From: Pirellulales bacterium
Lineage (GTDB): Bacteria > Planctomycetota > Planctomycetia > Pirellulales > Pirellulaceae
Assembly: GCA_046349935.1 (NCBI GenBank)
Contig: JAXMBK010000012.1
Location: 77,556-141,555, forward strand
DNA: 64,000 nt
Reading direction: 5' to 3'
The position numbers and the translations under genes were made by a program. Of the stretch, positions 23,392 through 62,389 are shown one piece after another. Numbering within the stretch: the stretch's first letter is position 1; each line of letters starts with the position of its first letter. Below the pieces are notes generated by a model, which ran no database searches, was not told the DNA's origin, and saw only the letters and a list, made by a program, of their open reading frames with translations.

Positions 23392-23406
23392 TGCTCACCA
23401 GCCTAT

Positions 23407-37973: not shown

Positions 37974-40900
37974 ATGACGCAGAATCACGACCCGAGCCTG
38001 GGCGACCAAGAGACGCGCGAGCGCGTCGGTCAGCCCGTCGAGCCCGTCGATCGCAGCCTCGGCGATCAGTCGACTCACGGCGACCGCGAAGCGTCGTCGC
38101 TTGGCGGTTTATCGGGAATAATCGTGGCACACGACGGCCCCATCGACGTCGTCGATCTGGCGGCTCGGTATGTAATCGAAGGGCCTGTCGGCCAGGGCGG
38201 CATGGGCGAAGTGCTGCTGGCGACCGATACGCGGCTCAAACGCAAAGTCGCCATCAAACGCGTCCGCGGAGCGATGGCGACGAACCAAGCTGCTCTTGCC
38301 CGTTTTGCCACCGAAGCACAGGCGATCGCCGCCCTGAGCCATCCGCACATCGTGCAGATCTACGACTACGGGCGCGACCAGGACGGCCCCTTCTTGATCA
38401 TGGAGTACGTCGACGGCGGGAGCCTACTCGATCGCTGCCAGACCGGTCCAATTCCCCTTGAGCAAGCGATCGACCTGACCTGCCAGCTCTGCGACGGACT
38501 CGCCAAGGCTCACGACGCGGGCATCATCCACCGCGACATCAAGCCCGCGAACATTCTGCTCACGCAGGATGGTACGGCGAAGCTGACGGACTTTGGGCTC
38601 GCGAAAGCCGAATCGACCGACACCAGCATGACAATGGCAGGGGCCCTACTGGGTACGTTGGACTTCATGCCGCCGGAACAACGCCGCGACGCGTCGCTCG
38701 TCGACGCTCGTAGCGACCTGTGGAGCCTCGGAGCGACGCTCTATCAGATGCTCACCGGCAAGAGCCCGAAGGTGATTCGCCTCCATGAGCTGCCGAAGTC
38801 GCTGCAATCAGTCCTAAGCAAAGCGTTGGAGGATCGACAGGAAGCTCGCTACCAAAGCGCACAGGAGTTCCGGGAAGCACTGCGAAACTCGCACATGACG
38901 GCGTACGACTTTTCTGGAGCGATGATTCCCCCCGCCGGAGAATGCCCGAAGTGCCGCACAAGAAATGAAGCGTCGCGCAAGTTCTGTCGGGAGTGTGCGG
39001 CCTCCTTACGCGTCAACTGCCTGCAATGCGGTGAGGGAATTCTCGCCTGGGAAAAAATCTGCGGTGAATGCGGCGGCAACCAAGCAGATCTCGTCTCAAG
39101 TCGAATTGGGGAGCTTCTTACCGAGTGCAGACGAGCGGAAGCGCTTCGAAGTGAACATGCGTACGATGATGCGATAAGCATCGTAGAGCCGATCGAGTCA
39201 CTGGCGGACGAACGTTTTGCACAAATCAGGACATGGGCAACAGACTTCCTTTCGTCGACTAACGCAGAGCGGGACCGGCAACTTCAACTCGCTCAGCAGC
39301 ATTATTCAGACGCTCAAAGGCATCGAGATGCCGTCGACTATCTCGCTGCGATCTATGAGATGCAGAAGATTCCCGTTCCGTTGCGATCCACCGAGATGGT
39401 CGCATATCTTCAGCAGCTTGAATCCGAGCGAGTGGCTGAATCGGACCGGCAGCTGTTTGCGGAAGCGAAACGGCACAGGAAGAGATTCGACTACCAGTCT
39501 GCCATTCAAGCCATAAAGCAGATTCCTCCTTCTCGACGATCTCGAACCGTGGCTGCCTATCTCATCCGGCTACAGTTCGATCAAGCGGAAGCTCAGCAGA
39601 CGCTCAAGAAGATTGAGGAAAAGATCTCGCAGCGTGACCAAGTCGGTCTTCGAAAACTCGTCGCCCGGGCACTGACGTTATGCGGCGACGACGACGGCCT
39701 ACGCGACCTGTTAACACAACTTGACGATGAAGCGTTTCAAAAGGCTCGAACGAGGGCGGAGTCATTTCGTGCAAAGTACGAATACGAGGACGCGTTGATC
39801 GTCGCTCGTAAGGTAGCAACCAAGGCCGGCGGGTCTATTAGCCATCATCGAGAGTGGGCTGAGGAATTCCTGACGTCAACGAAGCTAGAGTGGGAACAGC
39901 AGAGAAAGTCAGCATCGCAGCGGTTCGAGTTGGCTCGAAGGTATCGGGAGGAGTGCGATCTACAGGCTGCTGTTCAAGAGTTGGAGCGGATTTCTCCTGC
40001 GCTGCGTACGAAAGACATGCTCGCCTTCCTCGATCAGCTTCAGCTAGACTGTAAGAACAACAACAAACTCCATGACGCCCGTACATTAGCGGAGTCCCAT
40101 CGCACGCAGCACGCGTATGAGGCGGCAATGAATGTCGCCCAAAGTGTCGTGACTGCGGCAGGCGACCTCTTCCGCCATCATCGCGAGTGGGCCGAAGAAT
40201 TCCTGTCGTCAACAAAGGCAGAGTGGGAGCAGCAAAGAGAGTCGGCATCGCAACGGTTCGAGTTGGCTCGAAAGTATCGGGAGGAGTGTGACCTACAGGC
40301 TGCCGTTCAGGAATTGGAGCGGATTCCTCCGCCACTACGTACAAAAGACATGGCCGCCTGTCTCGACCAGTTGCAAACTGAGCAAGCCGAAGCCGAGCAA
40401 CTAGTCAGGATCATCGGAGAACAAGTCTCACAGGGCAAGCAACATGGGCTACGGCAACTTGTCGTACGGGCCTTGCAACTGCTGGGCAACAAAAGTGATC
40501 TATGCGAGTTGCTGACCAGGTTAGACCACGAGGAGTTACATCAGGCCCGAACGCGGGCCGAGTCTCTTCGTGCAAAGCACGCCTTCAAGGCGGCGCTGTC
40601 CATTGCGAGAAAGGTCGCGAACAAGGCTGGAGATCAGTTCCGGTGGCATCGCGAGTGGGCCGAGGCGTTTCTGTCGTCAACAACGGCAGAGTGGGAGCAG
40701 CAGAAAGAGTCCGCATTGCAGCGGTTCGAATTGGCTCGAAAGTATCGGGAGGAGTGTGACCTTCAGGCTGCCGTTCAGGAATTGGAGCAGATTCCTGCTG
40801 GGTTGCGTACGAAAGACATGGTCGCCTGTCTCAATCAGCTGCAAACTGATCAGGCCGAAGCGGAGCGACTGCTCAGAGAGATCCGGGCACAAGTCGCAGA

Positions 40901-42611
40901 GGGCCGACAGGTCGGCCTGCGAAGCCTCGTTGTACGAGCCTTGAAACTAGTGGGTGACAGAAGTGATCTACTTGAGTTGCTGACCAAGTTAGACGCCGAA
41001 GAGATCCAAAGAGATCGAACCCAGGCAGAGTCTCTTCGTGCACAACACGCGTATGACGCCGCGATTTATGTCGCTCTCAGGATCGCGAGCACGGCTGGTG
41101 ATCAATTCAGAGAGCATCGAGAATGGGCCGAGGCGTTCCTGTCGTCAAAAGCGGCAGAGTGGGAGCAGCAGAGAGAGTCGGCATTGCAGCGGTTCGAATT
41201 GGCTCCAAAGTTTCGGGAGGTGTGTGACCTTCAGGCTGCCGTTCAGGAGTTGGAGCGGATTCCCGTTGAAATGCGATCCGAACCAATCGACGCTAACCTC
41301 GCACAACTTCGAATTGAGCACGCTGACGCAACTAATCTGAGCCGCGCAATCGAGCAGCAGTTTTCACAAGCAAACCGAGTGGGCCAACTCGAACTTGAGA
41401 CGGTGAATGTAAAGGATCGAACCTCCCTGCGGGCCGCGAACTTTCGGCGAGCCTTACTTGTCGGTTCAACGATCGCGGCGATCACATTTACTGCAGTAAC
41501 GAGCGTTTTCTTGATTCGCTCGACGCAACGAGCATCGGCAGTTTCTCGTGCAATTCGGCAGGGACGATGGGACGATGCGTTGGCAATCGATCCGAGTAGT
41601 ACTCAAGCACTTCTTGGGCGAGCAAAACAACGACTGGATGGATCTGCGTCCGACTTGCACGAGGCAATCGCCGACTTGAATCGAGTCGCGGAGCTCGACC
41701 CGAACAACCGTCAGTTAGCGGATTTACGGGCCTTGGTGGTCGCGTGGGAGTCTCGTTTGGACGGTTCTAAAGCCTCGCAACAGTCGAACGGGCAACAACT
41801 GCCGACGCAAGAGAAGCAAGAAATCAAGACGCACTCAGAAAGCACCCCCCCGGCACAAATGTCCCCGCAGCAACTGCTCCAGCAACGGCCGCTGGTAAAC
41901 AGTATCGGCATGCAGCTGAAACTTCTTCCGGCGGGCACATTCATGATGGGCTCAGCAAGACCTGGCTCACGAGACACGCCTCGACATGTGACACTGACGC
42001 AACCTTTTTACCTGGGCGTCACGGAGGTTACTCAAGAACAGTTTAAGCGAGTGATGGGCAGCAATCCGTCCATCTCTGTTCGCGCACAGAATCCGGTTGA
42101 GAATGTGACTTGGGAAGATGCCGTCGAATTCTGTCGGCGACTATCGGAACTGCCCGAGGAGAGCAAAGCGCGTCGCATGTATCGACTCCCAACTGAAGCC
42201 GAGTGGGAGTACGCTTGTCGGGCGGGGACGACAACGGAGTACTTCTTTGGCGATAGCGGTGCGGACCTGGATCTTTACGCTTGGTACGAAGGTAATTCGG
42301 GCAAGATGGCACATCCGGTATGTCAGAAACAGCCCAACCCTTGGGGTCTGTACGACATGCACGGGAACGTGTGGGAGTGGTGTCACGACTGGCACGGCTA
42401 CCTATCGAGCAGCGAGACAGATCCTACGGGTCCGCCCAGCGGCATGGAGCGTGTCCTCCGAGGCGGCAGTTGGATCAACCCCGCGGCAAGTTGTCGGTCT
42501 ACGCTTCGATACTCGCGTGCTCCGATTCGCCGCGGCCCTCTCGATGGCTTCCGCATCGCTCTGACGCCGTCAAGTGACTCGGCTTACTTGATGCAGGAGC
42601 AACCCAAGTGA
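37974..42611 (+). CDS. Ser/Thr protein kinase with zinc ribbons, tandem helical repeats, TM segment and C-terminal FGE-sulfatase domain
   Basis: Kinase motifs as for 34780..37623. TM segment LLVGSTIAAITFTAVTSVFLI. C-terminal FGE motifs (RLPTEAEWEYACRAG, GLYDMHGNVWEWCHDWH, RGGSW). Confidence 0.85.
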   Translation: MTQNHDPSLGDQETRERVGQPVEPVDRSLGDQSTHGDREASSLGGLSGIIVAHDGPIDVVDLAARYVIEGPVGQGGMGEVLLATDTRLKRKVAIKRVRGAMATNQAALARFATEAQAIAALSHPHIVQIYDYGRDQDGPFLIMEYVDGGSLLDRCQTGPIPLEQAIDLTCQLCDGLAKAHDAGIIHRDIKPANILLTQDGTAKLTDFGLAKAESTDTSMTMAGALLGTLDFMPPEQRRDASLVDARSDLWSLGATLYQMLTGKSPKVIRLHELPKSLQSVLSKALEDRQEARYQSAQEFREALRNSHMTAYDFSGAMIPPAGECPKCRTRNEASRKFCRECAASLRVNCLQCGEGILAWEKICGECGGNQADLVSSRIGELLTECRRAEALRSEHAYDDAISIVEPIESLADERFAQIRTWATDFLSSTNAERDRQLQLAQQHYSDAQRHRDAVDYLAAIYEMQKIPVPLRSTEMVAYLQQLESERVAESDRQLFAEAKRHRKRFDYQSAIQAIKQIPPSRRSRTVAAYLIRLQFDQAEAQQTLKKIEEKISQRDQVGLRKLVARALTLCGDDDGLRDLLTQLDDEAFQKARTRAESFRAKYEYEDALIVARKVATKAGGSISHHREWAEEFLTSTKLEWEQQRKSASQRFELARRYREECDLQAAVQELERISPALRTKDMLAFLDQLQLDCKNNNKLHDARTLAESHRTQHAYEAAMNVAQSVVTAAGDLFRHHREWAEEFLSSTKAEWEQQRESASQRFELARKYREECDLQAAVQELERIPPPLRTKDMAACLDQLQTEQAEAEQLVRIIGEQVSQGKQHGLRQLVVRALQLLGNKSDLCELLTRLDHEELHQARTRAESLRAKHAFKAALSIARKVANKAGDQFRWHREWAEAFLSSTTAEWEQQKESALQRFELARKYREECDLQAAVQELEQIPAGLRTKDMVACLNQLQTDQAEAERLLREIRAQVAEGRQVGLRSLVVRALKLVGDRSDLLELLTKLDAEEIQRDRTQAESLRAQHAYDAAIYVALRIASTAGDQFREHREWAEAFLSSKAAEWEQQRESALQRFELAPKFREVCDLQAAVQELERIPVEMRSEPIDANLAQLRIEHADATNLSRAIEQQFSQANRVGQLELETVNVKDRTSLRAANFRRALLVGSTIAAITFTAVTSVFLIRSTQRASAVSRAIRQGRWDDALAIDPSSTQALLGRAKQRLDGSASDLHEAIADLNRVAELDPNNRQLADLRALVVAWESRLDGSKASQQSNGQQLPTQEKQEIKTHSESTPPAQMSPQQLLQQRPLVNSIGMQLKLLPAGTFMMGSARPGSRDTPRHVTLTQPFYLGVTEVTQEQFKRVMGSNPSISVRAQNPVENVTWEDAVEFCRRLSELPEESKARRMYRLPTEAEWEYACRAGTTTEYFFGDSGADLDLYAWYEGNSGKMAHPVCQKQPNPWGLYDMHGNVWEWCHDWHGYLSSSETDPTGPPSGMERVLRGGSWINPAASCRSTLRYSRAPIRRGPLDGFRIALTPSSDSAYLMQEQPK
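39590..41340 (+). repeat. intragenic tandem repeats (~470 bp / ~157 aa unit, 4-5 copies) within kinase gene 37974..42611
   Basis: Recurring units HREWAE(E/A)FLSST.AEWEQQ.ESA.QRFELARKYREECDLQAAVQELE.IP..LRTKDM seen at the nucleotide level near 39843, 40171, 40647 and 41116. Confidence 0.7.
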
Positions 42612-42734
42612 AGGGACGCTGTAGCGGACCTTTCGAAGTAGAATACGCAGAACATAGGTCTCACGTGCAGAGGAACAGGGCGAAGTGATTTAACCTCCGC
42701 AGTCAGCCCTCACGTTCCGCAAGCGAACAAGCCG

Positions 42735-45700
42735 ATGACTCAGCGAAGAAACCAAAGCCTGGGCGACCAAAAGACACACGAGCGTGTCGGTCAGCCCGTC
42801 GAGCCCGCTGATGGCAGCTTGGGCGAGCAGTCGACGTACGGCGACCGGGAAGCGTCGTCACTCGGCGAACTGTCGGGCAGGATCGTGGCACACGACAGCC
42901 CCATCGACGTCGTCGATCTGGCGGCTCGCTATGTGATCGAAGGGCATGTCGGCCAGGGCGGCATGGGTGAAGTGCTGCTGGCGACCGATACGCGGCTCAA
43001 ACGCAAAGTCGCCATCAAACGCGTCCACGGAGCGATGGCGACAAACTCCTCTGCCCTCGCCCGTTTTGCCACCGAAGCACAGGCCATCGCCGCCCTGAGC
43101 CATCCGCACATCGTCCAGATCTACGACTACGGGCGCGACCAGGACGGCCCCTTCTTGATCATGGAGTACGTCGACGGCGGGAGCCTCCTCGAGCGGTGCC
43201 GCGACGGTGCGTTGCCGGTGGAGCAAGTGATCACCCTCGCCTGCCAGCTCTGCGATGGACTCGCCAAGGCTCACGACGCGGGCATCATCCACCGCGATAT
43301 CAAGCCCGCGAACATTCTCCTCACCAAGGACGGCCACGCCAAACTCACCGACTTCGGCTTAGCCAAAGCCGAAGCCGCCGACCACGGCATGACCATGACC
43401 GGTGCGGTGCTCGGCACGCTCGACTACATGGCCCCCGAACAGCGTCGCGACGCGTCGCTCGTTGATGCACGGAGCGATCTGTGGAGTCTCGCGGCGACGT
43501 TGTACCAGATGGCGACCGGCAAGAGCCCAAAGGTGATTCGCCTCCATGACCTGCCGAAGTCGCTGCAGACGGTCCTCGGCAAGGCCTTGGAGGACGAAAA
43601 GGAAGACCGTTATCAGACCGCACGCGAGTTCAAAGAGGCGTTGCAAACCAGCCAGTCGCATAAGGCAACCGGCGTTGACTTGGCGGAAGGCGACTGCCCC
43701 CACTGCGGCGCGACGAATCCCACAAACCGTAAATTCTGCCGCGAATGTGCGAACTCGTTGGAGGTGCCGTGTCTTTCGTGTGCGCAAAAAATCCCCATGT
43801 GGGAGACTGTCTGCGATCATTGCGGGACGAAGCAGCGCCCGTTGCTTGAGCAACGTCGCCAGCAGATGGCCGCGCAGCAGTCGGAGGCGGAGACGCGAAT
43901 CAAGAATCACGACTTCGACGGCTCCGCGAAGCTGGCTATCGAATTGCGCGACGAATCGGACCTCCGTCTGCGACATCTGAGTGCTTGGGCAGAACGTTTT
44001 CTGACAGAACTCGACGAGACGCGGACTCAGGAGCTCGCGCGTATCGGCCAACTCGTGCGGGAAGCCAAGGCGCATCAGGCGGCATACGACTATGCCGCGG
44101 GTCTGCGCGCCCTCGAGACGGTGCCCGAGATTCTTGCAACCGCCAAACTTCGCGGACATCGGATGACCGTCAACGTCCTGCGAACGTCACTCCAACGTCA
44201 ATTGGACGAAGTCACGCGTCTTGAACGATTGATTCGCGACCGTATCGCCGCTCGCGAGCTCAACGACCTGCTGCCGGAAGTGAACCGACTGCTCGGCCTG
44301 CAACCCAGTCGTACGGATCTGCAACAACTGCGAGATCAGCTGACGCAGCGCGAGGCCAAGTTACGTGCGACTCGTGACGAAGCGTACGCTGCCGCGCTGA
44401 AGCTGTTCGCCGCGCACGACTACGAGAATTGCCTGAAGCAGCTTGCCAGGATCGACACCTCATTGGTCGATGAGGCTATCCGTAATCTGCAAGAGCGTGC
44501 AGGTGCTAGCCTTGAGCGCATCCGGAGCCTACGAAAGACGATCGCCGCTCGCGTAAGCGCAAAGCAGCTTGCGGGCCTGCTAGACGAGGTCGAAGAGTGC
44601 CTGAATCTGCAGCCTAACGCAACCGACTTGAAGAAGTTGCACGTCCAATTGAGAGCTCAATTTCGTCAGATCCAGCAGCGTGACAATGCCTTCAATGAGG
44701 CTCGGAAGCTTCTTTCCGCGGGAAACGCTATTGAAGCCATGAACCTGCTTTGCAATGTGCAATCGTTCGAGCTCACGGCCGAGCAGGTGCAGTTTAAGGC
44801 ACGGATTGAGGCAATAGTGGCAGCGGAACTAGAGTTGGCTGCGTTTTTGAAGGTGGCGGAGGCTGATGGCGTAATTGAACTGCAGGAAGCCATCGTGTTG
44901 CTGGACAAGGCCTGCGATTACCTGAAGCTGAATCCCCATCATGCGAAGATCACAAAGCTCCAGGAGGATGTTCTGAGGCGTTTACGGCAGTCCGCGGTGG
45001 CCGACCTGAACTCGCTTCCCATGAACGTCTTCCAGGTACTTGTTCGCGACATGTTAACGCGGGCCAAGGAAGTCGACAGACCGACGCTCTGGACATATTT
45101 GATTGAGGCCGTTGCCGGTCATGAGGAAAAGCTAGTCATCGTGATGCATTTGTCGCACGACATGTCTGACGAATCGCTCTCATTAGCCATCGAGCGTCTT
45201 GGGGCGAGCATAGCCAAGGTACCGCCGGAAAATCGTCGCGAGATTGGCTTAAGGTTTGTAGAGACGCTGAACTCGCTGCATCGTTCGCCAGCCGAGTTCA
45301 GTCTGCGTCTGGATCGTTTACGACGTGTACAACGATTGATCGGTGATTTGCAGGAGTCGCAGGCCGCGTCGGGCAATGTGGAGCCGTTTTGGTCGCCGAT
45401 TGAGCGTCTGAATGCTTGGTTGCGAGTCCCTGAGATCATCAAGCAAGCGGAGTGGGACGCCAGCCGCAACTCGATTAGGCGTGGCGAGACGCAGGGCGAC
45501 TTGCAGTATCGAGTGGGGAAGCAATTGGCGGAGACCCTGTCTCGCGCCTTACCTCATGGCACTCAAGGCGAGACGATGAGTACCCATGAGAAGGCGATGG
45601 CCATGTATCAGGTGCTGCAATACCTCCATGCCACGGAACTGGTGTCGATCGACTGGCGTAATCGCGCTGCTTACTATCTGGAGTATCATCATTGGCATGA

Positions 45701-47417
45701 TGCGGCCGGATCGCAGTCGGCCGGTAGTTACCGCAAGAATCTGTTGATGATTGCGGGCGGTTTCGGGGGATTGGTCGCCGTGTTGGTGCTCGGACTGTTG
45801 TTCTCGATGTCGAGCGACACAGAAGTCGCGAAAGGGAAGACGAAAGCTGCCGGCTCGAATCCACCTGCGACCAGCAATTCGACGACGAAGCCCGCAAGGG
45901 CGAATCTGCGAACTTCCGTCGTTCCGCCGCCTGTAAAGCCGCTGGTCGTTGCGCCGCCGACGGCGCCCCCGCCGCCGCCCGCGGGCGAGGCGGCGAAAGC
46001 GGAGCAGGATTTGAATAGTCTGCCAGATGAGCAGAAGGACAAAGGCGCCGCGTCGCAAGCGGCGAATGTCGAGGACTCAGCGCAACCCAAGCCGATGGGG
46101 CCGCAGATGCCGCCGCCGCTCGAGCGCGACTGGGAGATCGCCGAGGCACCGCTGAAGCCGGAAGCCAAACTGCCGATTTACATGCCGCTGCCGCCAGTGG
46201 GTGCGTCAGTCCAAGGATTCTCGCCAGAAACGCTGTTTCGATGGGTGATCTGGAGCCAAGAGAATGTGCGATTGGATGCGACGCCGTTAGTCGTGCATGG
46301 GCTCAAAGAAGCAACGGCGACGTGGCGTGCGACGAAGCCAGGTAAAACAACGGTGAGCGTCGAGGAAGTGCAAAAAATCCTAGACGGGACGCCCATTCGC
46401 GCGACGGATAGCGACGGCACCCAATACGAGATCGCCAAGTTCTTCGTCCATCGGGCTCCGGGGAAAGTGACTTTGGAGATGAAGCTGCTGAATGGCATCT
46501 CGCGCAATTTGTTTGAGATTCAGCGTCAGCTGTTCTTCTGCATCGTTGAATTCAGCGACACAACGGGAAGAAAACACTTCGTATCGCTAATGCCCCCCGC
46601 GGAAAGCGCCGCCGTTCCCGTGGATTGGGAGAGCATCAAGAATGGAAACTTGACAAGTTCGACGGGACTCGATGATCGCATCCTTCGCCCCGAAGCGGGA
46701 GGAGATTTGCAGCGGCTCTTTGTAGCTCGAGCCACGCTGAAATGGATTGATGACTCGACCGTAAGTGTGGGCGGACGATCGTGGCGCGAGGCGCCGGAAC
46801 ATGAAGAGTGGCCGTTGAAGTATGACGGAATTGACGGATTGGCCGAGGGGACCAAGCTGGGAGTTCGTTGGGCGGTGGATGCCAAACGAAGTTCGCTGTG
46901 TGTATACACGCCTAAATACAGTTCGCCAATGCTCGATCAAGAAATCAGTGATCTCAAGGCGCGCTCGCAGACGATCTGGGACGCTCGCCGCCAGTTGCGG
47001 AATGCCAAGATAGAAGAGAATGAAGCGAAGCGTATGAAGCAACTTCTGACGAGCATTGAGCGTCTTGCGAAAGTTTTGGATCTCCCTGTCAAGAAGTTTC
47101 CCGATCGGCCAAATCCAGCGGGGGCGGCTGACAAGCGGCGAGAAGTCGAAGCTGCTTTTTCCAAAGAAGTCGCTGAGTTTGACAAGTGGGTGGAATTCCT
47201 GGGAGGCAAGGCTGATGATTTGAAAGCGGAGATCGACGCGAAGATCGCCGATGCCATTCGCCGCAAGGCGGACGCCATGCAACGTCACGCCAACGCTGAA
47301 AAGACGCTCAAAGAACGAGCCAAAAGCATCGAAGCCGAACTGTTTCGCGTGGTGACGACGAAGGACGGACGACGGATTCGAGTGCCGGTAATGGTGTATC
47401 CCTCGAAGGACCTCTAA
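42735..47417 (+). CDS. Ser/Thr protein kinase with zinc ribbons, long coiled-coil region, TM segment and large C-terminal extracytoplasmic region
   Basis: Kinase motifs as for 34780..37623. TM segment LLMIAGGFGGLVAVLVLGLLFSM. First ~100 codons ~90% identical to 37974..42611 (tandem paralog). Confidence 0.85.
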   Translation: MTQRRNQSLGDQKTHERVGQPVEPADGSLGEQSTYGDREASSLGELSGRIVAHDSPIDVVDLAARYVIEGHVGQGGMGEVLLATDTRLKRKVAIKRVHGAMATNSSALARFATEAQAIAALSHPHIVQIYDYGRDQDGPFLIMEYVDGGSLLERCRDGALPVEQVITLACQLCDGLAKAHDAGIIHRDIKPANILLTKDGHAKLTDFGLAKAEAADHGMTMTGAVLGTLDYMAPEQRRDASLVDARSDLWSLAATLYQMATGKSPKVIRLHDLPKSLQTVLGKALEDEKEDRYQTAREFKEALQTSQSHKATGVDLAEGDCPHCGATNPTNRKFCRECANSLEVPCLSCAQKIPMWETVCDHCGTKQRPLLEQRRQQMAAQQSEAETRIKNHDFDGSAKLAIELRDESDLRLRHLSAWAERFLTELDETRTQELARIGQLVREAKAHQAAYDYAAGLRALETVPEILATAKLRGHRMTVNVLRTSLQRQLDEVTRLERLIRDRIAARELNDLLPEVNRLLGLQPSRTDLQQLRDQLTQREAKLRATRDEAYAAALKLFAAHDYENCLKQLARIDTSLVDEAIRNLQERAGASLERIRSLRKTIAARVSAKQLAGLLDEVEECLNLQPNATDLKKLHVQLRAQFRQIQQRDNAFNEARKLLSAGNAIEAMNLLCNVQSFELTAEQVQFKARIEAIVAAELELAAFLKVAEADGVIELQEAIVLLDKACDYLKLNPHHAKITKLQEDVLRRLRQSAVADLNSLPMNVFQVLVRDMLTRAKEVDRPTLWTYLIEAVAGHEEKLVIVMHLSHDMSDESLSLAIERLGASIAKVPPENRREIGLRFVETLNSLHRSPAEFSLRLDRLRRVQRLIGDLQESQAASGNVEPFWSPIERLNAWLRVPEIIKQAEWDASRNSIRRGETQGDLQYRVGKQLAETLSRALPHGTQGETMSTHEKAMAMYQVLQYLHATELVSIDWRNRAAYYLEYHHWHDAAGSQSAGSYRKNLLMIAGGFGGLVAVLVLGLLFSMSSDTEVAKGKTKAAGSNPPATSNSTTKPARANLRTSVVPPPVKPLVVAPPTAPPPPPAGEAAKAEQDLNSLPDEQKDKGAASQAANVEDSAQPKPMGPQMPPPLERDWEIAEAPLKPEAKLPIYMPLPPVGASVQGFSPETLFRWVIWSQENVRLDATPLVVHGLKEATATWRATKPGKTTVSVEEVQKILDGTPIRATDSDGTQYEIAKFFVHRAPGKVTLEMKLLNGISRNLFEIQRQLFFCIVEFSDTTGRKHFVSLMPPAESAAVPVDWESIKNGNLTSSTGLDDRILRPEAGGDLQRLFVARATLKWIDDSTVSVGGRSWREAPEHEEWPLKYDGIDGLAEGTKLGVRWAVDAKRSSLCVYTPKYSSPMLDQEISDLKARSQTIWDARRQLRNAKIEENEAKRMKQLLTSIERLAKVLDLPVKKFPDRPNPAGAADKRREVEAAFSKEVAEFDKWVEFLGGKADDLKAEIDAKIADAIRRKADAMQRHANAEKTLKERAKSIEAELFRVVTTKDGRRIRVPVMVYPSKDL

Positions 47418-47655
47418 CTGGGTGATTGACAGTCTTGGATTCGCAAGCGATTGCCATTCGGTCCAACCCGCCAAGCCTTCGACCAGACGCTCGTTGGACA
47501 AATGTCCCACTTGCCATAACGGGCCAGTGTGTGCGGCGAGCATCCAAGCGACCGGTGGGGACGCGAATCGCACGCCAGCTTGCTGCATTCCGCTGGATAT
47601 CGACAGCCCAGTTTCTCGGTAACGGTCGTCGAGCAGCGACACTTGGTTCGACACG

Positions 47656-48579
47656 TTACGGAGCGAGCCTGGCAGTCCGTTCCTCCAGCAGCTCTCGATA
47701 CTCGGCCTTTTGTTCGGCCGGCAGAAAGCAGCGTTCGAGCAGACCACTCGCCTCGGGCAAGGCCGCAGTCTGGGCATCCAGCACGCGGGCGGCCGCTTTC
47801 GCGGGAAGCTGGCAATACTCGGCAAACGCGAGCCAGTGCTTGCGGTCGAGGTTGTCCTTCTTGCCCAAGATCGAAAGCGCCAGAGGATCGTTGGGAATCA
47901 CCAGCCGCGTACAGACCAGGTCATACGCAGGCGTCAGCCGAATGACGCCTTGTTCATCTACGAGCAACGAGAAATTCTTGAGGTGCATGTCGCCGTTGCC
48001 GCTCCACCACACAAACACCAACAACCGATAGAACTTCTGGATTTCGATCAGCGGTTCCGAAGCGAATCGACGTACCAATTTCACGCTGCGTTCGGCCGAA
48101 GACTCGTACTTCTCCTTCGGCGACAGCTCGGCCAGTTGACAGAAATCCTCTTGCCGGAGTTTCTTACCGTTCTCCAGCCGGTCGAACCGGCGCACGATGA
48201 ACGCGAGCGAACCATCCTTGAGCGACACCAGACCGAACCGCCCCACGTCGATGCCGACAAGCTGCGCGAGTCGCGTCGTCACATGCTCGTTCTCCGGCAG
48301 CGACGGGTAAGCCTCCGTTTGCGGCTTGAGTATGAACCGCCCTGCCCCGGCGGCGACCTGGAGCGTTTCGCGGTCCGCGGAGAGATTCACCGAGATCTTC
48401 TTCTGAGCCCCTGATAACGAGGTGTGACCGACCATGGCAAGCGCTGCCGTATGTAGTCGGCCAATTTCGATCTCCAGCTTGGGCGGTCGGGCGGAGCCGA
48501 ACAAGTTGCGGACGCAGCGGGCATGATACGCTTCCCCGTCGTCAACCCATTCCAAGCAGATACGACAGGCTTCACTCAT
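47656..48579 (-). CDS. hipT: HipA C-terminal kinase-domain toxin (HipT-like)
   Basis: HipA-family catalytic motif VWWSGNGDMHLKNFSLL. Start taken at the ATG in an ATGA overlap with the upstream gene's stop. Confidence 0.7.
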   Translation of the reverse strand: MSEACRICLEWVDDGEAYHARCVRNLFGSARPPKLEIEIGRLHTAALAMVGHTSLSGAQKKISVNLSADRETLQVAAGAGRFILKPQTEAYPSLPENEHVTTRLAQLVGIDVGRFGLVSLKDGSLAFIVRRFDRLENGKKLRQEDFCQLAELSPKEKYESSAERSVKLVRRFASEPLIEIQKFYRLLVFVWWSGNGDMHLKNFSLLVDEQGVIRLTPAYDLVCTRLVIPNDPLALSILGKKDNLDRKHWLAFAEYCQLPAKAAARVLDAQTAALPEASGLLERCFLPAEQKAEYRELLEERTARLAP

Positions 48580-48914
48580 ACTCCCTCCTCCTCCGGCAAG
48601 GGAATGATCTCCACGGCGCCGACGCAATCGGCGCAGGTCGCCAGCAGCAGACCAAAGGCGTCGTCCTTGCTGATCTTCAGCTTCTTGGTTGCCAGCTCGA
48701 GCAGCCAACCCTCCGGCAGCAGGTTTTCAAAGAACGGATGGAGCCCGTCCGAAATATACGGCTCGCCACGCACTGGCAAGGTCAGCGAAACGGGGACCGC
48801 CGCCGGATTGGAGATCCACTCGGCCGTATAGCGGAACTCAACTTGCCGGCCCGTCTCGCGGAGTACACCGACGCATTGTCCGTCGAGACGAACTTCAGCG
48901 CTGCGTTTCTTCAT
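48576..48914 (-). CDS. hipS: HipA N-terminal-domain-like small protein (HipS-like)
   Basis: ~112 aa resembling the HipA N-terminal subdomain (VGVLRE...FRY...LPVRGEPY...FENLLPEGW). Start taken at the internal ATG 48914. Confidence 0.6.
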   Translation of the reverse strand: MKKRSAEVRLDGQCVGVLRETGRQVEFRYTAEWISNPAAVPVSLTLPVRGEPYISDGLHPFFENLLPEGWLLELATKKLKISKDDAFGLLLATCADCVGAVEIIPLPEEEGV

Positions 48915-49158
48915 CAGGCGTCTCCTTCGGCGCGTCGACGATCCCCAGCTGTTTGCCGAACACGGCCAAGACCTTATTGACTTCGTGAAGCCGTACCGTG
49001 CTCTTGGCCCGCTCGAGCTCCGAGATGAAACGCGTGCCGACACCCGCTAACTCGGCCAATTCTCGTTGCGATAACCGGCTCGCCTTGCGGCGGGTCCGAA
49101 CAAAGACGCTCAGCGTCTGGTGGCCGTTGCTTATCATGCTCCATTCCCGAAAGGGCAT
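48895..49158 (-). CDS. hipB: XRE-family HTH transcriptional regulator (HipB-like antitoxin)
   Basis: Cro/C1-type HTH (LSQRELAELAGVGTRFISELERAK). First gene of a three-gene overlapping operon. Confidence 0.7.
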   Translation of the reverse strand: MPFREWSMISNGHQTLSVFVRTRRKASRLSQRELAELAGVGTRFISELERAKSTVRLHEVNKVLAVFGKQLGIVDAPKETPDEETQR

Positions 49159-49498
49159 ATGCGTTGGATGCCGAGGGAATTCTACCGCGAAAAACGGGCA
49201 TATTCAAGAGAATGATCCCGAACGGGAACAGAAGACCATTCCGATGCCGAGGTTGACCAAGGCGGGGGACCGATCTTTCGATATGTTCCCGATCGGGCAT
49301 GACATTCGCGGTAACACGACGATTCGGGCGACAGCCCGCAATCGAGGAATCAGGTCATGGGTTTAAGTACTATCGGGTACGAATTGAGGGCTCAGGTACT
49401 ACCGTTTTTGGCCCCTTTTTGTATCGTTTCGCTACATCTTGCACGAGTCGCATTTTTGCTGTAACTTCCGCCCCCATCGACGGTTCTCGTTGTAACGT

Positions 49499-49562
49499 CT
49501 AGTCGGCTAGTGCAATTTGGGGTGCAAGAGGTCGTGGGTTCAAATCCCGCCACCCCGACTAG
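49499..49562 (+). other. tRNA-like remnant (D-like hairpin, T-arm GTGGGTTCAAATCCCGC, 8-bp closing stem), putative integration att site
   Basis: Canonical T-loop TTCAAAT with a 5-bp stem. An acceptor-like strand CACCCCG is closed by ctagtcgg/ccgactag. There is no anticodon arm, so this is not a complete tRNA. Lies 130 bp upstream of the integrase. Confidence 0.3.
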
Positions 49563-49692
49563 ACTTACGACGATTCCTTTTCGCAGTTGCATCAGCAAAT
49601 TGCATCACGAACCGCCCGCGAACGGCAATTCGCAGGCGGTTTGGCGAGCCTTCCGACTCGACTGTTGTTTCACACAGTGGGAGGGCTCGACG

Positions 49693-50706
49693 ATGCTTTC
49701 GGAACCATGGTTTCGTGAATTTGACGGCTGGTGGTACTGCTACGATCGCTCCAGCGGGCGACGTCGGCAGGTAAAACTCGCCAAGGGACGGGAAAACCGT
49801 GCTGAGGCCTACGATCGCTGGAGCGACCTGAGACGCGGCCGACGTGCCGTCGCCTCGCTCCACACCGAGTCGGTCGCTGCCTTGCTGGATCTCTATCTCG
49901 ACTGGTGCTGCTCGAATCGGTCGGACGCCACCTACAAGCTCTACGTCCGGCTGCTTCAGTCGTTCTGCTCCCACGTCGGCGGAAAATTCGTCGCGTCGGA
50001 TCTACGCCCCAAGGACGTCACCGCCTGGATCGGTTCCCACGACTGGTCGAATTCCACGAAGGCGACCGCCGTGCAGACGCTCAAAGCCGCCTTTCGCTGG
50101 CTGGTACGTGAGGGGCATCTCGAAAAATCGCCCGTGGCCGACGCTCGCGGCCCGGCTCGGGAGAGCCGCGAGGTGATTCTCACGGCCGACGAGTTTGCGG
50201 GAATTCTGAAAAAAGTGAAACGCGACTTCGCCAACTTGCTCGAATTCATCTGGCACACAGGCTGCCGCCCACAGGAGGCCGTGAACCTCACCGTGGCCCA
50301 CTGCGAACTTGAGCTGCGTCGCGTGGTCTTTCCCGCCTCCGAAGCCAAGGGAAAACGCCATCCCCGCGTGATCTATCTTGATGATCGAGCCTTGGAGATC
50401 CTGCGGAACGAACTCAGAAGACGACGTTCCGGAATCGTCTTCCGAACGAGGCAGGACAAGCCCTGGTCGCGAAACACGATTCGCTGCCGGTTCCGCTCGC
50501 TAAAGAAGCAATTCGGCGGGCCGCAGTACTGTGCGTATAATCTTCGCCACTCCTTCGCGACGAACGCTCTCCAGCGACTCGACCCCATCTCGGTTGCGAC
50601 ATTGATGGGGCATACCGACGCTACCACGCTGGCCCGGAACTACCAACACCTGGCGAAACTGCCCGCCGTCATGATCGAAGCGGCGAAGAAGGCGACGAGC
50701 GGTTAG
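49693..50706 (+). CDS. int: tyrosine-type site-specific integrase
   Basis: Phage-integrase catalytic region (CRPQEA, RHSFATNALQRL, LMGHTD, TLARNYQHL). Start taken at the internal Met (MLSEPWF). Confidence 0.85.
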   Translation: MLSEPWFREFDGWWYCYDRSSGRRRQVKLAKGRENRAEAYDRWSDLRRGRRAVASLHTESVAALLDLYLDWCCSNRSDATYKLYVRLLQSFCSHVGGKFVASDLRPKDVTAWIGSHDWSNSTKATAVQTLKAAFRWLVREGHLEKSPVADARGPARESREVILTADEFAGILKKVKRDFANLLEFIWHTGCRPQEAVNLTVAHCELELRRVVFPASEAKGKRHPRVIYLDDRALEILRNELRRRRSGIVFRTRQDKPWSRNTIRCRFRSLKKQFGGPQYCAYNLRHSFATNALQRLDPISVATLMGHTDATTLARNYQHLAKLPAVMIEAAKKATSG

Positions 50707-51034: not shown

Positions 51035-51736
51035 ATGCTCGACGCGGATCTGACTCGCATTATCAATCGTCCGCAGAACCCGGAAGAAGTGGCCGCTGGG
51101 ATCAAATACCGTTACAACCACGCGAAACGAGGTGCGGGATCGATTCTTCCGGATTGTGAATCCGAATGCGCCCAGGAAGTGGCGATCAAGCAATTTACCA
51201 ATCCCAAGGAATACGCCAATCGACGTCACGCGGCGGCGATTGCCTTTCTCGAAGGCAAGCAAGGCGCCCTGCGGATTGCTAAGGAACGTCGGCGGTTCCT
51301 GAATGTGTCGGCACTGGCGGACGACTCCAAAGTAGCAGAGAGGATCTTCGCGGACCGGATGCCGGTCGAGTCGCCCGACGAAGAGGCGGAAGCTCGCTTG
51401 GAATGGGCCCGAGCTTATCTGAAAGAGGCACAAAGTCTCGTCAACGAGGCGCAGGAAGTCCTCGCGACTTACCTGAGCCAGATGGAGGAACATCCTCGGG
51501 CCTGGGTCACCGACTGGCTCAACGGTCAATCGGTGCCGGAAATTCGCAAATCGTCCGGGATCCCCACGACGAAGTATCGCATCGGTCAGGAAGTGTTTGC
51601 GCTCTCCCAGGTCCCGGCCATGCGGGGTCTGATCAAAGAAGTGCCGATCTTCTCGGCCGATATCTGGGAACTCTGCAACTATGGAGTTCCGCCCGTCAAA
51701 CGAATTCTCCTCACCCCTCCTTCCGACCGCGGATAG
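51035..51736 (+). CDS. ECF-type sigma factor-like protein
   Basis: Region-2-like CESECAQEVAIKQF and region-4-like WVTDWLNGQSVPEIRKSSGIPTTKYRIGQEVFAL. Immediately upstream of a kinase. Confidence 0.5.
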   Translation: MLDADLTRIINRPQNPEEVAAGIKYRYNHAKRGAGSILPDCESECAQEVAIKQFTNPKEYANRRHAAAIAFLEGKQGALRIAKERRRFLNVSALADDSKVAERIFADRMPVESPDEEAEARLEWARAYLKEAQSLVNEAQEVLATYLSQMEEHPRAWVTDWLNGQSVPEIRKSSGIPTTKYRIGQEVFALSQVPAMRGLIKEVPIFSADIWELCNYGVPPVKRILLTPPSDRG

Positions 51737-51747
51737 GTAATTCTGCC

Positions 51748-53838
51748 ATGTGCACCAACGATGCTGACCTGTTGATTAGCGATTGGTCGCAACAGCCGCC
51801 GGAAGACCTGCATGTCGATTTGGTCGTACGGCTGCAGTCGGCGGCTAATGCTTATGAGATGGCGCGAAACGCGCTCGAGCTGGCGCGTGAGATCGAACGG
51901 CCGCTCGATCTGGCGGTGCTGCTCGAACAATCGCCGCCACACTGCCAGGACGCTGTGCGGAACGCGTTTTTTGACGACCTTTTAGACTTAGAGAGCATCG
52001 AGCAGCTGCTGGTTACTGAAGCTGGCGTCAACGAGTTGTTCGGGGCGATTCCCGCTGGCGAATGGAGTTGCTTCCTCGTGCGCTATCTCGAACGGTCTGA
52101 GGGGACGATCCGGCGGGCAGCGGAACCGCGCGGCATATCGCAATTCTTCCGCCTGCTGCAACCGTACCTACGAAAGAACCTCGCTTGCGAAGCGGCGTTT
52201 TGCCAACATTTTGGACTGCTTGAGCGCGGAACCAAGCTAAAGGTTGATGAGTACGAAATTAAGGGCATCGTTGGTGTCGGCGGGATGGGAGTCGTCTATG
52301 AGGCGCGGCAGAAAGGCGGCAAATCGGTCGCGGTCAAGACGCCGCGTCCAGATTTGCTGCAATGTTTCGAGCACACACGCGAAGCATTTCTTAAGGAAGC
52401 TCATGTCTCCAATCATCTCGAAGGGGAGGGGTTAGTGCCGGTGCATTATGTCGATCGCGAGTTTCCCTTCTATGTGATGCGTCTCGTGCCCGGCGCTACA
52501 ACGTTGCAGCACCGCATGGAAGCCGGTACGTTGGACGTGCGCACTATCGGTGAGATCCTGCAATCGACTGCCCGAGGGCTGCGGAAGCTGCATCACTTTC
52601 GACATCTTCACCTCGATCTGAAGCCGTCGAACATACTTATCACCGACGCCAGCCACGCCTTTCTGACCGACTTCGGCCTCATTTGTCGTCTGTCCAACAA
52701 AGGGACAGCCAAGCTATCCCGTTTTCAGGGCACATCCCAATATGCGGCGCCCGAACAAATACGTGGTGAAACGCTGAATTTCGCGACGGATATCTACTCT
52801 CTGGGCGAAGTCGGGTTGCAAGCGATTAAGGGGATGAAGCCTGGAAAGGATCGCGAGCTTCGACACCATCTCACCGCGATTTGTAACCGCGCTCATAGTT
52901 CTGACCCGACGCGCCGCTACCAAACGGCGACCGAGTTTGAAGCGGACTTAGTGCGCTGCCTCAGCGGCGGTGTACCGTGTGTTTCTGTGAAACATGTCGC
53001 GCTGAGTTGGGCTCGTCGCTGGCGCTGGGGTATCGCAGCGGCCATGATGCTGGTCGTGATCGCGTTCGCATGGGCGCCCGCGGCCCGCGCCTGGCGGGTG
53101 CACCGGTTCTTCAGTGACTATTCTGAGATCACGGCGCTCCAGCACCATTCCCAAAAAATTGTCGGGCGCGGCGAACGCACGGAGCCGATTCCGACGGACC
53201 CTAAGGATCCGACGAAGCTCGCAGTATTGCCGGTCGATCAAGGATTTAGGATTCACGAGGACTCGCGCTTCTTTGACTTAACCGCCTGGAGACCGTTGCA
53301 AGCAGATGAACTTAAGCGCGATACGATCAATCCCTGCTATCACACACGAGCAATTACGGTCTCGAAAACCGACAAGCAGGCGCGCTGGTTACGAGTGCGA
53401 TTTTGGACTAGCGGCTATGCGGTCCATGCGTACTGTGCCAGTCACCCTTATCGAATCGCCGTCGGCTACGACGCCCACCTAGTCGGCCAGCAAATGACCG
53501 AGGTGGAAGAACTGCAGATTGATACCGAGGGCCACGAAGGAGAATTCCAGATCATCGTTCATGCGACGTTTTGGAACGCCTTTCACACCCAAGATCAGTA
53601 TTGGGCTGGCATGAACGTGCTGCACGGTACCAAGAAAGCGCAGCTGGCGGTGCTGATCGGCTATCCGTATCTGCTTGAGAATGTGTCCGAAGTGACCGGC
53701 AACGAACAGGATCCGCACGCTGGAGAACCGCGCGGTCGCGAAAACACGTCTGGACCGCTGCTGGATGTCACGGGGCCACAGTCGATGGTCCACAAACTTC
53801 AATGGAAATCTGTTAAACAGAGCTGGATCGGCTTTTAA
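51748..53838 (+). CDS. Ser/Thr protein kinase with single TM and extracytoplasmic C-terminal domain
   Basis: Kinase motifs GVGGMGVVYEA, AVKTPRP, HLDLKPSNILI, DFGL, APEQ. TM segment WGIAAAMMLVVIAFAW. Start taken at the ATG at 51748. Confidence 0.8.
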   Translation: MCTNDADLLISDWSQQPPEDLHVDLVVRLQSAANAYEMARNALELAREIERPLDLAVLLEQSPPHCQDAVRNAFFDDLLDLESIEQLLVTEAGVNELFGAIPAGEWSCFLVRYLERSEGTIRRAAEPRGISQFFRLLQPYLRKNLACEAAFCQHFGLLERGTKLKVDEYEIKGIVGVGGMGVVYEARQKGGKSVAVKTPRPDLLQCFEHTREAFLKEAHVSNHLEGEGLVPVHYVDREFPFYVMRLVPGATTLQHRMEAGTLDVRTIGEILQSTARGLRKLHHFRHLHLDLKPSNILITDASHAFLTDFGLICRLSNKGTAKLSRFQGTSQYAAPEQIRGETLNFATDIYSLGEVGLQAIKGMKPGKDRELRHHLTAICNRAHSSDPTRRYQTATEFEADLVRCLSGGVPCVSVKHVALSWARRWRWGIAAAMMLVVIAFAWAPAARAWRVHRFFSDYSEITALQHHSQKIVGRGERTEPIPTDPKDPTKLAVLPVDQGFRIHEDSRFFDLTAWRPLQADELKRDTINPCYHTRAITVSKTDKQARWLRVRFWTSGYAVHAYCASHPYRIAVGYDAHLVGQQMTEVEELQIDTEGHEGEFQIIVHATFWNAFHTQDQYWAGMNVLHGTKKAQLAVLIGYPYLLENVSEVTGNEQDPHAGEPRGRENTSGPLLDVTGPQSMVHKLQWKSVKQSWIGF

Positions 53839-53855: not shown

Positions 53856-54617
53856 ATGATACGTACTTCGATCGTCATAGTGTTTTCGGTCACTTTCCTG
53901 GGTGCTAGTGCCTGGGCCGGTGAGATCGGACGTTTGCCGTTGCCTGGATCACTCGTGGAGTGGAATTCGTCGGAGGGTCGCAGATTGTTTCGGGAAAGCG
54001 CGTCGTGCCAAGAAGCATTTTGGTCGGTCGCTGAGCATCTGCGGCCCCAGTCGAACCTAGCGACCTGCGCTCCGACGACCGCGCTCATTGTGCTAAACGC
54101 GATGCAGCGGGACTTGCCTCAGGCCAGGGAATACGGACCGTATCCTTATTTCACAGAGGACAATTTTTTCACGGCGGAAGTCGAAGCGATCAAAAAGCGG
54201 ACCGCCGTCAACGGCAGCGGTGTGACGCTCGATCAATTGACGAAAATGCTGAGGACTCACGGTGTCGAGGCCGATGCGATCCATGCGCGCAATACCACCG
54301 TCGACAAGTTCGAGGAAGATTTGCAGAAGACGCTTTCCGGACCAAAGCAGTACGTAATTTCCAACTACTTTCGTCCCGCACTGGGTCAAAAAAGTGCCGG
54401 ACACGTCAGTGTGGTCGTGGCCTATCATGCAACCGAGCATCGGTGCTTGGTGCTCGATTGTGCGTCGTTCAAATATCCGTTCGTGTGGGTCAAAACTGCG
54501 GACCTGTTTAAGGCGATGGGGGAACAGGACGACGAGTCGAAGACCAGCCGTGGGTACATCATTGTCAAAGAGAGAGCTTCCAGCGATACCCGCTCAAGTG
54601 GCCAAGTTGAGCGCTAG
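53856..54617 (+). CDS. secreted phytochelatin-synthase-like (papain-fold, peptidase C83-like) protein
   Basis: Signal peptide. Catalytic-Cys context CAPTTALIVLNAM and a His context GHVSVVVAY, as in phytochelatin synthases. Confidence 0.6.
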   Translation: MIRTSIVIVFSVTFLGASAWAGEIGRLPLPGSLVEWNSSEGRRLFRESASCQEAFWSVAEHLRPQSNLATCAPTTALIVLNAMQRDLPQAREYGPYPYFTEDNFFTAEVEAIKKRTAVNGSGVTLDQLTKMLRTHGVEADAIHARNTTVDKFEEDLQKTLSGPKQYVISNYFRPALGQKSAGHVSVVVAYHATEHRCLVLDCASFKYPFVWVKTADLFKAMGEQDDESKTSRGYIIVKERASSDTRSSGQVER

Positions 54618-54641: not shown

Positions 54642-56014
54642 TCAGACGCGAGCGAGCATCGTCGCCGTGACGTCTTCCGGGAATCGGTCGTTGCGTACTA
54701 GGCCGGCGAATCGCGCGAAGATCGATCCTAAATTTCCCCAGAGCCATAGATAGGCGAGCTGGAGAAGGCTCAGAGCGTCCGCAGCTGCTCCCCGGCCCGG
54801 TTGGCATCCCTTCGGAGTGCCGATGCCGAAAAGGGCGTGCATGAGAATACCCAGGTTGTGCGCGCCAGCCGCGATCGAGTAGTGCTTCCGGACCTTGCCG
54901 ATTCCGCGATGCCACGTCCGCCTGCCGCCGCCCGTCTCCAGCAAATGCGCGAAGGTACGTTCGACCGGTTCGCTGCGTCGGCGCTGCAGTCTTCGACCGC
55001 GGTCGGTGTTCATCTGCTGACGATTCGCGCGCTCCGCTTCGTCCTTCGCCGACGAGGCGTGCCTGCCGGAGCCGGTACGCGAACCGCGCGGCGGGTTCTT
55101 CGTCTGGTGCCGCAGCTCGGGGATGAACGTTTCATACGGCGTCTCGGTCGCCATCGTTTCCAGGGTCGCGGCGGAGTGATATTCCTTGTCCGCGACAACG
55201 TCCTCAATGACGACTGCGCTGCCAGTGGAGGCCTGATGAGTCTGGGCCGCGTGGACGCTGTCTTCCAGCGTCGCGACATCCGCTTGGTTCGCCGGATAGA
55301 TCTCGGCCGCCCTGATCAGATTCGAGTCCAGATCGACAATGTGTTCCGCCTTGTACGCCAGATGCGTCGTGCCGTCCTTCATCCGTGCGATGCGGGCGGC
55401 GTCATCGATCGGACTCACCCACTCGTCGTTCGCAACTCGCTTATCCGCTCGCTGCCGATCGAAGTTGCGAATCTCGTCCGCCGTGGGCTGGCCGTCCGGC
55501 GCAACGACGCCGTTGGCCTTCATCTGTTGCGTCACGTACGCTTCCCAATCTTCGCCGGTGTCTCGTCGCACGATGCTCTTCATCGCCACGTTCGCTTCTA
55601 GCGTGCTGGAGTCCACGCCGACGGTCTTGCCATTCAGCAACTGATTCTCGCGCGCCAGCTTCAACACCCACGCGAAGACCGCATCGTGCACCTCGTGCGA
55701 AAGCCGATCAAGCAAGTGACTCAGCGACGAATGATCGGGCGTGTTCTCGCTGCGCGGGAGGCCGAGAGACGACTGGATGCCTTCGAAGTAGCCGACGATC
55801 AGTATCCGGAAATAGACGCCGGGCGGAATGCCGGCACGTCCCTTGCCTTGGACAACGGCTCGCAAAGCGTCTTGACACATCGATCGAACCCCGCTTCGGC
55901 CAGCAGTTCGTTCAGCTTCTGGCAGAACACGTGCCCGATCGACTTCGGCAGGTGATCCGCGCGCACGAACAGATCCTGCTGAATGTCGACCTTCCGTCGC
56001 CCTAACCCCATCAT
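54642..56014 (-). mobile_element. IS5/IS1182-family DDE transposase gene, frameshifted (N-terminal ORF 55799..56014, main ORF 54642..55880)
   Basis: N-terminal segment LFVRADHLPK...FDRCVKTLCEP and, in another frame, GIPPGVYFRILIVGYFEGI. DDE region with VVADKEYHS (DKGY-like). Confidence 0.7.
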
Positions 56015-62261: not shown

Positions 62262-62389
62262 GCGCCAAGGCGGCGACGGCCCCTTTCCATCCGCGGAACC
62301 CTTCGGCTCAATCCCGCAAGCTTTTCGAATGTTACCGGCGCGTGCCGGTCCGCGTGGAAGCGATGCATGCTTGTCGGCATGCACTGCCA

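Follow-up and report, generated by a model that had tools for sequence, protein, structure and literature searches.

An intact HipBST-family toxin-antitoxin operon predicted in a Pirellulales (Planctomycetota) genome

HipBST toxin-antitoxin systems have been described in Legionella pneumophila (Lp) and in enteropathogenic Escherichia coli O127:H6 (O127). HipB of L. pneumophila was found by electrophoretic mobility shift assay (EMSA) to bind three operators of 18 nt each at an even spacing, the gaps between them being 53 bp long and the distance of O1 upstream of hipB 24 nt (Lin et al., PMC10653801). The O127 promoter does not contain Legionella-type operators (PMC10653801). In O127 HipT, serines S57 and S59 are autophosphorylated (PMC10627512, PMC10653801), and toxicity is abolished by mutations of K64, K86, H212, N215 and D233, which are equivalent to K61, K85, H199, N202 and D219 of the Lp protein (PMC9325769). 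In the O127 antitoxin HipS, Trp65 is wedged in the Gly-rich loop's pocket and is required for antitoxin function (PMC10627512). Here we describe a 64,000-nt stretch of contig JAXMBK010000012.1 (referred to below as the window) from a Pirellulales (Planctomycetota) genome. Judged from its sequence, the interval 47656-49158 of the window is an intact three-gene toxin-antitoxin operon of the HipBST family, and it is very probably a functional tripartite type II module.

The interval was found to be occupied by three co-directional genes on the minus strand in the order hipB-hipS-hipT. The hipB-like open reading frame (ORF) (49158..48895; 87 aa when counted from ATG 49158) encodes a helix-turn-helix (HTH) regulator of the Cro/C1 type, the hipS-like ORF (48914..48576; 112 aa) a homologue of HipA N-subdomain 1 that is the predicted antitoxin, and the hipT-like ORF (48579..47656; 307 aa) a HipA-core Ser/Thr kinase that is the predicted toxin. 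The hipB and hipS genes overlap by 20 nt (48895-48914). The TGA of hipS and the ATG of hipT overlap by 4 nt as ATGA, seen on the plus strand as TCAT at 48576-48579. A first-pass annotation of the window had described three genes overlapping head to tail with an ATGA junction between hipS and hipT, and both statements were borne out by the ORFs and their translations. The hipS start is preceded by an AAGGAG ribosome-binding site (RBS) 7-8 nt before the ATG, and hipT has a strong RBS (GGAGGAGGAGGGAG). A terminator scan found none after hipT; its two matches both lay inside coding sequence and were fewer than in shuffled sequences. Two plus-strand ORFs overlapping hipT (47426-48031 and 47710-48414), for which no family-library search was made, were taken as spurious antisense ORFs, which are common in high-GC DNA.

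When the three products were compared with profile libraries, hipT was assigned to HipA_C in Pfam (E 8.4e-51; 173 bits against a cutoff of 30.5) and hipS to Couple_hipA, the HipA N-terminal domain (7.2e-30 in Pfam), and to TIGR03071 couple_hipA (8e-32 in NCBIfam). The hipB product matched HTH_3 (6.1e-9 in Pfam) and, at 69.2 bits and thus just below the cutoff of 71.65, TIGR03070 couple_hipB (2e-19 in NCBIfam). The reading of the three genes in the first-pass annotation as an HTH regulator, a HipA N-domain protein and a HipA kinase-core protein is confirmed by these searches. Components of the L. pneumophila HipBST system were the best match in the Protein Data Bank (PDB) for all three proteins. 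HipT matched HipT(Lp) (7vkb/8ezr) at E 3e-53 over residues 4-305 and HipT(O127) at 2e-20, and HipS matched HipS(Lp) at 8.5e-16, HI_0666 at 1.2e-14 and HipS(O127) at 3e-12 as well as residues 9-108 of HipA. HipB matched HipB(Lp) (8ezt) at 2e-8, and this was its only match among the HipBST comparisons. After Legionella and O127, the next PDB matches were HipA of E. coli K-12 and Shewanella. By sequence match scores, all three proteins are nearer to their Lp than to their O127 counterparts, as for the L. pneumophila-type subclade. An AlphaFold2 model of HipT (mean predicted local distance difference test (pLDDT) 85.3; predicted template modelling score (pTM) 0.87) was superimposed with Foldseek on HipT(Lp) (7vkc/7wcf) with template modelling (TM) scores of 0.90-0.91, on HipT(O127) with 0.82-0.84, and on HipA with approximately 0.7. 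The proposal that the N-domain and kinase proteins together reconstitute a split HipA is likewise supported: HipS and HipT are colinear with HipA, the split and the 4-nt overlap are kept in relatives, and the kinase model has the fold of HipT(Lp). The HipT sequence is identical to that of a protein from a Pirellulales metagenome-assembled genome annotated as 'HipA domain-containing protein'.

The first-pass annotation had made its reading depend on a catalytic Asp and a Gly-rich loop in the kinase and on kinship of the small protein with the HipA N-domain. The loop is present in HipT as G51-HTSLSGAQKK-61, including S54-L-S56, and the catalytic Asp is D197, while HipS is clearly a homologue of HipA N-subdomain 1. 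K61 and K85, the RxDR motif (R131-F-D133-R134), the catalytic motif GNGDMHLKN with D197, H199 and N202, and the Mg-binding D220 in PAYD were all found, and no catalytic or ATP-binding residue is missing. In alignments of 71 HipT and 78 HipS homologues taken from related genome loci, K61, K85, R131, D133, R134, D197, H199, N202 and D220 were invariant or nearly so, and S54 and S56 were found in 60 and 65 of the HipT sequences, respectively. The key HipT residues correspond to positions experimentally needed for toxicity (PMC9325769) and to the catalytic D210 of the O127 kinase (PMC10627512). S54 and S56 align with S57-I-S59 of O127 HipT, where the L. pneumophila loop reads S-V-Q, and by analogy with O127 they are likely autophosphorylation sites. 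In HipS, E68-G-W70 (PEGW) aligns with Glu63-Gly-Trp65 of O127 HipS, and W70 is kept in 70 of the 78 homologues.

A search with HipT returned 3010 homologous proteins at E<=1e-10, the closest of them mostly from Planctomycetota, Myxococcota and Acidobacteriota, and homologues of 63-90% identity were numerous. A scan of one genome per species gave a set of 80 related loci, mostly from these three phyla; Spirochaetota, Bacteroidota and Verrucomicrobiota contributed more distant members. Searched by tblastn, 77 of the 80 loci had a homologue of hipS directly upstream of hipT and 67 had a homologue of hipB upstream of hipS. The 4-nt hipS/hipT overlap was found in 55 of 70 loci. Because gene order and overlap recur in the relatives, the hipS/hipT split appears to be an old, conserved arrangement and no frameshifted hipA. 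Plasmids frequently carry HipT relatives as well: 2136 plasmid records were counted, and 1218 of these are conjugative. The plasmid relatives in Bacteroidota and Legionella have the same three annotated genes. These findings show, at the level of sequence and structure prediction, that family membership, gene order, coupling and catalytic motifs are intact and that operon and operators are conserved across phyla.

Three predicted HipB operators, all members of repeat family D1, were located upstream of hipB: O1 (49142..49159, core 49146-49155, CCCTTTCGGG on the gene strand), O2 (49213..49230, core 49217-49226, CCCGTTCGGG) and O3 (49284..49301, core 49288-49297, CCCGATCGGG, a perfect palindrome). 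The O1-O2 and O2-O3 spacings are each exactly 71 bp, and exact matches to CCCGWWCGGG in the whole window were only two, namely O2 and O3. A candidate sigma-70-like promoter, TTGAAT-17-TAGAAT (49207..49179, minus strand), is placed between O2 and O1. The first ATG of the long hipB ORF falls within O1; relative to ATG 49137, the whole site ends 4 nt and its 10-nt core 8 nt before the start codon. Several close relatives have an in-frame stop, or no earlier start codon, so that the equivalent of Met8 is their sole possible hipB start. Because of this, and because O1 overlaps the first ATG, hipB more probably starts at ATG 49137 (80 aa) than at ATG 49158 (87 aa), and the shorter product is also consistent with the 76-aa HipB(Lp).

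The predicted operator triplet is conserved across phyla. In the 67 related loci with hipB, the core CCCGnnCGGG occurred at 5.56 per kb upstream of hipB compared to 0.048 per kb elsewhere; it was found upstream of hipB in most of these loci, with an O1-type core at the same relative position. The interval between neighbouring sites was 70-72 bp in 38 of 69 cases and 141-144 bp in 15 of 69, where the middle site has degenerated. The position-frequency consensus was TGTTCCCGATCGGGAACA, an 18-nt perfect palindrome. The 18-nt sites and 53-bp gaps reported for Legionella amount to the same period of 71 bp, and the Legionella pattern was recovered in a plasmid copy from L. adelaidensis (L081, 778-938), in which TTACCGCGATAACAGTAA, CTACCGCCATAACAGTAA and TTACTGCTATAACAGTAA are spaced by 72 and 71 bp, with 24 nt between the end of O1 and the hipB ATG. 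A plasmid homologue from Runella (Bacteroidota; L082, 871-975) has CCCGAACAGG-type and GTACCCGAACAGGTA-type sites spaced by 40-41 bp. From clade to clade the operator sequence changes and the layout is kept, the sites being of the TTACTGCTATAACAGTAA type at 71-72 bp in Legionella and TGTTCCCGATCGGGAACA at 70-72 bp in Planctomycetota, Myxococcota and Acidobacteriota. As far as predicted sites can tell, the operator architecture is common to this locus and the Legionella system while the recognition sequence is unrelated.

From the characterised homologues we infer that HipT is toxic, that HipS neutralises it, that HipB binds DNA and what kind of target is hit, which would combine as follows. 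Free HipT would phosphorylate an essential translation-related protein and thereby arrest growth; to our knowledge, each Hip kinase with an identified target acts on an aminoacyl-tRNA synthetase. HipS, as a detached HipA N-subdomain 1, would bind HipT beside the Gly-rich (P-) loop and keep the loop ejected and ATP-incompetent, with Trp70 probably wedged into the loop pocket in the manner of Trp65 of O127 HipS. Autophosphorylation of S54 and S56 may tune both the activity of HipT and its binding of HipS. HipB dimers would bind O1-O3, the 18-bp palindromes at a 71-bp period that flank the promoter, to repress the operon, and would also bridge HipS-HipT heterodimers.

Several points weigh against this account. 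TrpS, the target of the O127 kinase (PMC6581861), may not be that of the present HipT: neither TrpS nor GltX relieved the toxicity of HipT(Lp), the nearer relative, and no substrate of it was validated by phosphoproteomics (PMC10653801). The Trp-plug step is extrapolated from O127, the more distant of the two systems, as HipS(Lp) neutralises its toxin without a Trp, having Ile/Met at that place (PMC10653801). On the DNA side, O1 is an imperfect palindrome (CCCTTTCGGG), and the promoter match is not significant by itself (mean of 0.6 matches in shuffled sequences), being nevertheless the sole promoter-like match in 47300-49800 and appropriately positioned. Finally, only one of the five AlphaFold2 models of HipT was confident, the other four having a pLDDT of 50-62.

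HipT has a conserved N-terminal mini-domain, which HipA is without (PMC10627512), and in the present protein it carries the motif C5-x2-C8...H19-x2-C22 (residues 5-22; 48514-48567, minus strand). The pattern was CCHC in 63 and CCCC in two of the 71 HipT sequences, and the other six keep the first Cys only, the remaining three ligands having been lost jointly. Such all-or-none loss of ligands is typical of a metal site. In the AlphaFold2 model the CxxC lies between two short strands and the HxxC starts a helix at residues 20-27 (pLDDT 84-88), in a knuckle-plus-helix arrangement. The motif was also found in the HipT of the Runella plasmid; it is absent from the HipTs of Legionella and O127. As both crystallised HipTs (Lp and O127) retain only the first Cys, a metal site would have been missed in them. 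The HipBST literature searched contained no mention of a zinc site in HipA or HipT. From the sequence pattern and the model we tentatively propose, as a long shot, that the CCHC motif forms a zinc knuckle in this locus and in most of the relatives scanned. If this is true, and if occupancy of the site affects binding of HipS or HipB or the stability of the toxin, HipBST would have a metal- or redox-sensitive trigger. Zinc- and oxidation-dependent control has a precedent in the antitoxin MqsA, whose degradation is controlled in this way.

To the right of the operon, approximately 370 bp from hipB, lies an att-like 3' fragment of a tRNA-Pro gene of about 34 nt (49528-49561, plus strand), recognised by a metagenome scan and by ARAGORN on the matching contigs. 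Its 29-mer GGTCGTGGGTTCAAATCCCGCCACCCCGA was matched exactly in at least 120 metagenome contigs; in 36 of 43 scanned loci it formed the 3' terminus of a gene for tRNA-Pro with the anticodon CGG, GGG or TGG, and in seven, including L103, L116 and L157, the fragment stood alone. ARAGORN found no tRNA in the window. A tmRNA reading of the remnant, in which a 5' GGGGUG was joined to the T-arm and acceptor, reached 21.9 bits in Rfam against a gathering score of 47, and the tmRNA or minihelix idea was dropped as the fold was no better than shuffled sequences (z -0.82) and the 29-mer is the tRNA-Pro 3' end.

A tyrosine integrase gene (49693-50706, plus strand; Phage_integrase 1e-18) begins 131 nt downstream of the fragment, and a 5'-truncated copy of its 3' end (62386-62738, plus strand; 353 nt, 91.5% identical) is found 12 kb to the right of it. 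The stretch between the two holds a Ser/Thr kinase gene, the fourth in the window (51403-53838), a gene for a phytochelatin synthase-like protein (53856-54617, plus strand; PF05023 3.4e-56), a DDE transposase (54642-55880, minus strand) and an rve-type integrase (58700-59755, minus strand); a desaturase gene is also found to the right of the tyrosine integrase. The region right of the tRNA fragment resembles one of integrative elements that are decaying or arranged in tandem. The first-pass annotation had placed the locus beside a tRNA-like remnant and the integrase, at or near an island boundary. The first part stands in that the remnant is a tRNA-Pro 3' fragment with the integrase adjoining, although ARAGORN calls no tRNA in the window. 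The second is fair as a statement of position but stands only in part: the fragment and integrase are near, but hipBST and the integrase are on opposite sides of the fragment, no second direct repeat of the fragment was found within the window when up to 3 mismatches were allowed, and the profiles of guanine-plus-cytosine (GC) content and skew had no compositional step at the locus.

The same observations bear on the most viable alternative, namely that the module is as described but serves mainly as an addiction (stabilisation) or abortive-infection defence cassette belonging to a mobile element that has integrated at tRNA-Pro, not as a chromosomal stress or persistence switch. The short distance from hipB to the fragment and the integrase, the transposases and the truncated second integrase copy beyond them, and the frequency of HipT relatives on plasmids all point towards such a role, as does the recent validation of a HipA-family kinase system in phage defence (PMC13092281). 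PADLOC returned matches to the candidate system PDC-M03A/B (E 2e-5 and 1.5e-3); these were weak and partial, so that assignment to a known defence system was dropped, and a scan of neighbouring genes revealed none for defence. With hipBST opposite the integrase, no bounding second repeat and uniform GC, the evidence for hipBST as mobile-element cargo points both ways, and we regard a mobile-element role as possible and the less likely of the two.

That the locus is a decayed or domesticated remnant, in which the ORFs are intact and the kinase is no longer a toxin, would fit the frequent decay of chromosomal toxin-antitoxin loci and a region holding truncated mobile-element genes. It is very unlikely, as the catalytic, ATP-binding and HipS-contact positions are all intact, both translational couplings and three operator sites (O1 in imperfect form) are retained, and 63-90% identical homologues are numerous. 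An ordinary bipartite hipBA with hipA split by a recent frameshift, as a pseudogene or an assembly error, would explain the joint colinearity of HipS and HipT with HipA and is scarcely credible, given the same split point with its ATGA overlap in relatives from several phyla, a mini-domain in HipT that HipA does not have (PMC10627512), the strong hipT RBS, and the fact that a single fused ORF was not seen among the 80 loci.

On its other side, hipBST is convergent with a gene for a 1560-aa Ser/Thr kinase that has paralogues further left. In all, three large paralogous eukaryotic-type Ser/Thr kinase genes (947, 1545 and 1560 aa) were found at 34780-47417 on the plus strand, and the N-terminal kinase regions that they share make up the repeat families D2 and D5-D7. 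Within the 1545-aa gene, units of 300 nt recur at spacings of 333, 468 and 468 bp (39738-41306). Further left on the minus strand, 8236-10356 and 23238-27529 share segments that are 70-90% identical (families D4, D8, D9, D12, D13, D18 and D19), linking a 683-aa ORF (8305-10356) and an 845-aa ORF (24992-27529) as paralogous genes approximately 16.7 kb apart.

Read as a HipBST module, the locus is an ordinary member of a known family that was generically auto-annotated in GenBank, and it is informative mainly for comparison. With it, the Legionella-type HipBST branch is shown to be abundant beyond the taxa studied so far. In one system it mixes features kept apart in the literature, namely the Trp plug and dual-serine loop on the one hand and the kinase type with triple, 71-bp-spaced predicted operators on the other, and this mixture helps to sort traits ancestral to HipBST from peculiarities of Legionella. 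Both the conserved consensus of the operators and the CCHC motif are predictions that can be put to a direct test, and for annotation the names hipB, hipS and hipT can replace 'HipA domain-containing protein'.

Compared to the known systems, the locus has the same gene order as L. pneumophila HipBST (Lpg2368-2370; PDB 7VKB, 7VKC, 7WCF, 8EZR-8EZT), which is its top match in both sequence and structure. The two are also alike in a short HipB (about 76-80 aa) and in having, upstream of hipB, three 18-bp sites that recur about every 71 bp and in the present locus are predicted. They differ in that the HipTs are only 36-39% identical; the loop reads S-L-S in the present kinase and S-V-Q in that of Lp; Trp70 of HipS is replaced by Ile65/Met66 in Lp; the operator is TGTTCCCGATCGGGAACA here and the unrelated TTACTGCTATAACAGTAA in Legionella; and the HipT has a CCHC motif of which the Lp protein keeps the first Cys only. 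Most of the 71 HipT relatives have an S-psi-S loop and most HipS relatives have the Trp. The S-psi-Q loop and the Trp-less HipS, neither of which was found here, thus appear to be features of the Legionella lineage that do not define the subclade.

The E. coli O127:H6 system (PDB 7AB3-7AB5), with which the first-pass annotation had suggested a comparison, has the same tripartite architecture, and the relationship was evident in the HipT and HipS matches (2e-20 and 3e-12), the structural superposition and the aligned key residues. S54/S56 are matched by the S57/S59 dual-serine loop, the PEGW of HipS by Glu63/Trp65, and the catalytic and Mg-binding Asp residues by D210 and D233. In contrast to this likeness, the O127 HipT is 23% identical at E 2e-20 in an alignment limited to residues 12-224, is longer, and differs in its target-binding loops. 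E. coli K-12 HipBA (PDB 3DNT, 2WIU, 4YG7) has the same kinase fold and motifs, an HTH regulator acting on multiple palindromic operators, and growth arrest through phosphorylation of an aminoacyl-tRNA synthetase; the counterpart roles in the present locus are predicted. In K-12, HipA has N-subdomain 1 and the kinase in one fused chain and the antitoxin role falls to HipB, whereas here a separate antitoxin is predicted and HipB would be mainly a regulator and bridge. A single fused HipA polypeptide, as in bipartite HipBA, was not found: there are two ORFs with an RBS each, and the split is kept in relatives. The Haemophilus influenzae pair HI_0665/HI_0666 (HipS structure 7CZO), matched by HipS at E 1.2e-14 and with PEGW common to both, belongs to the gammaproteobacterial O127-type subclade, unlike this locus. 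By sequence comparison, the Pirellulales operon thus has a kinase nearest to the Legionella type together with an antitoxin Trp plug and a dual-serine loop that follow the E. coli type.

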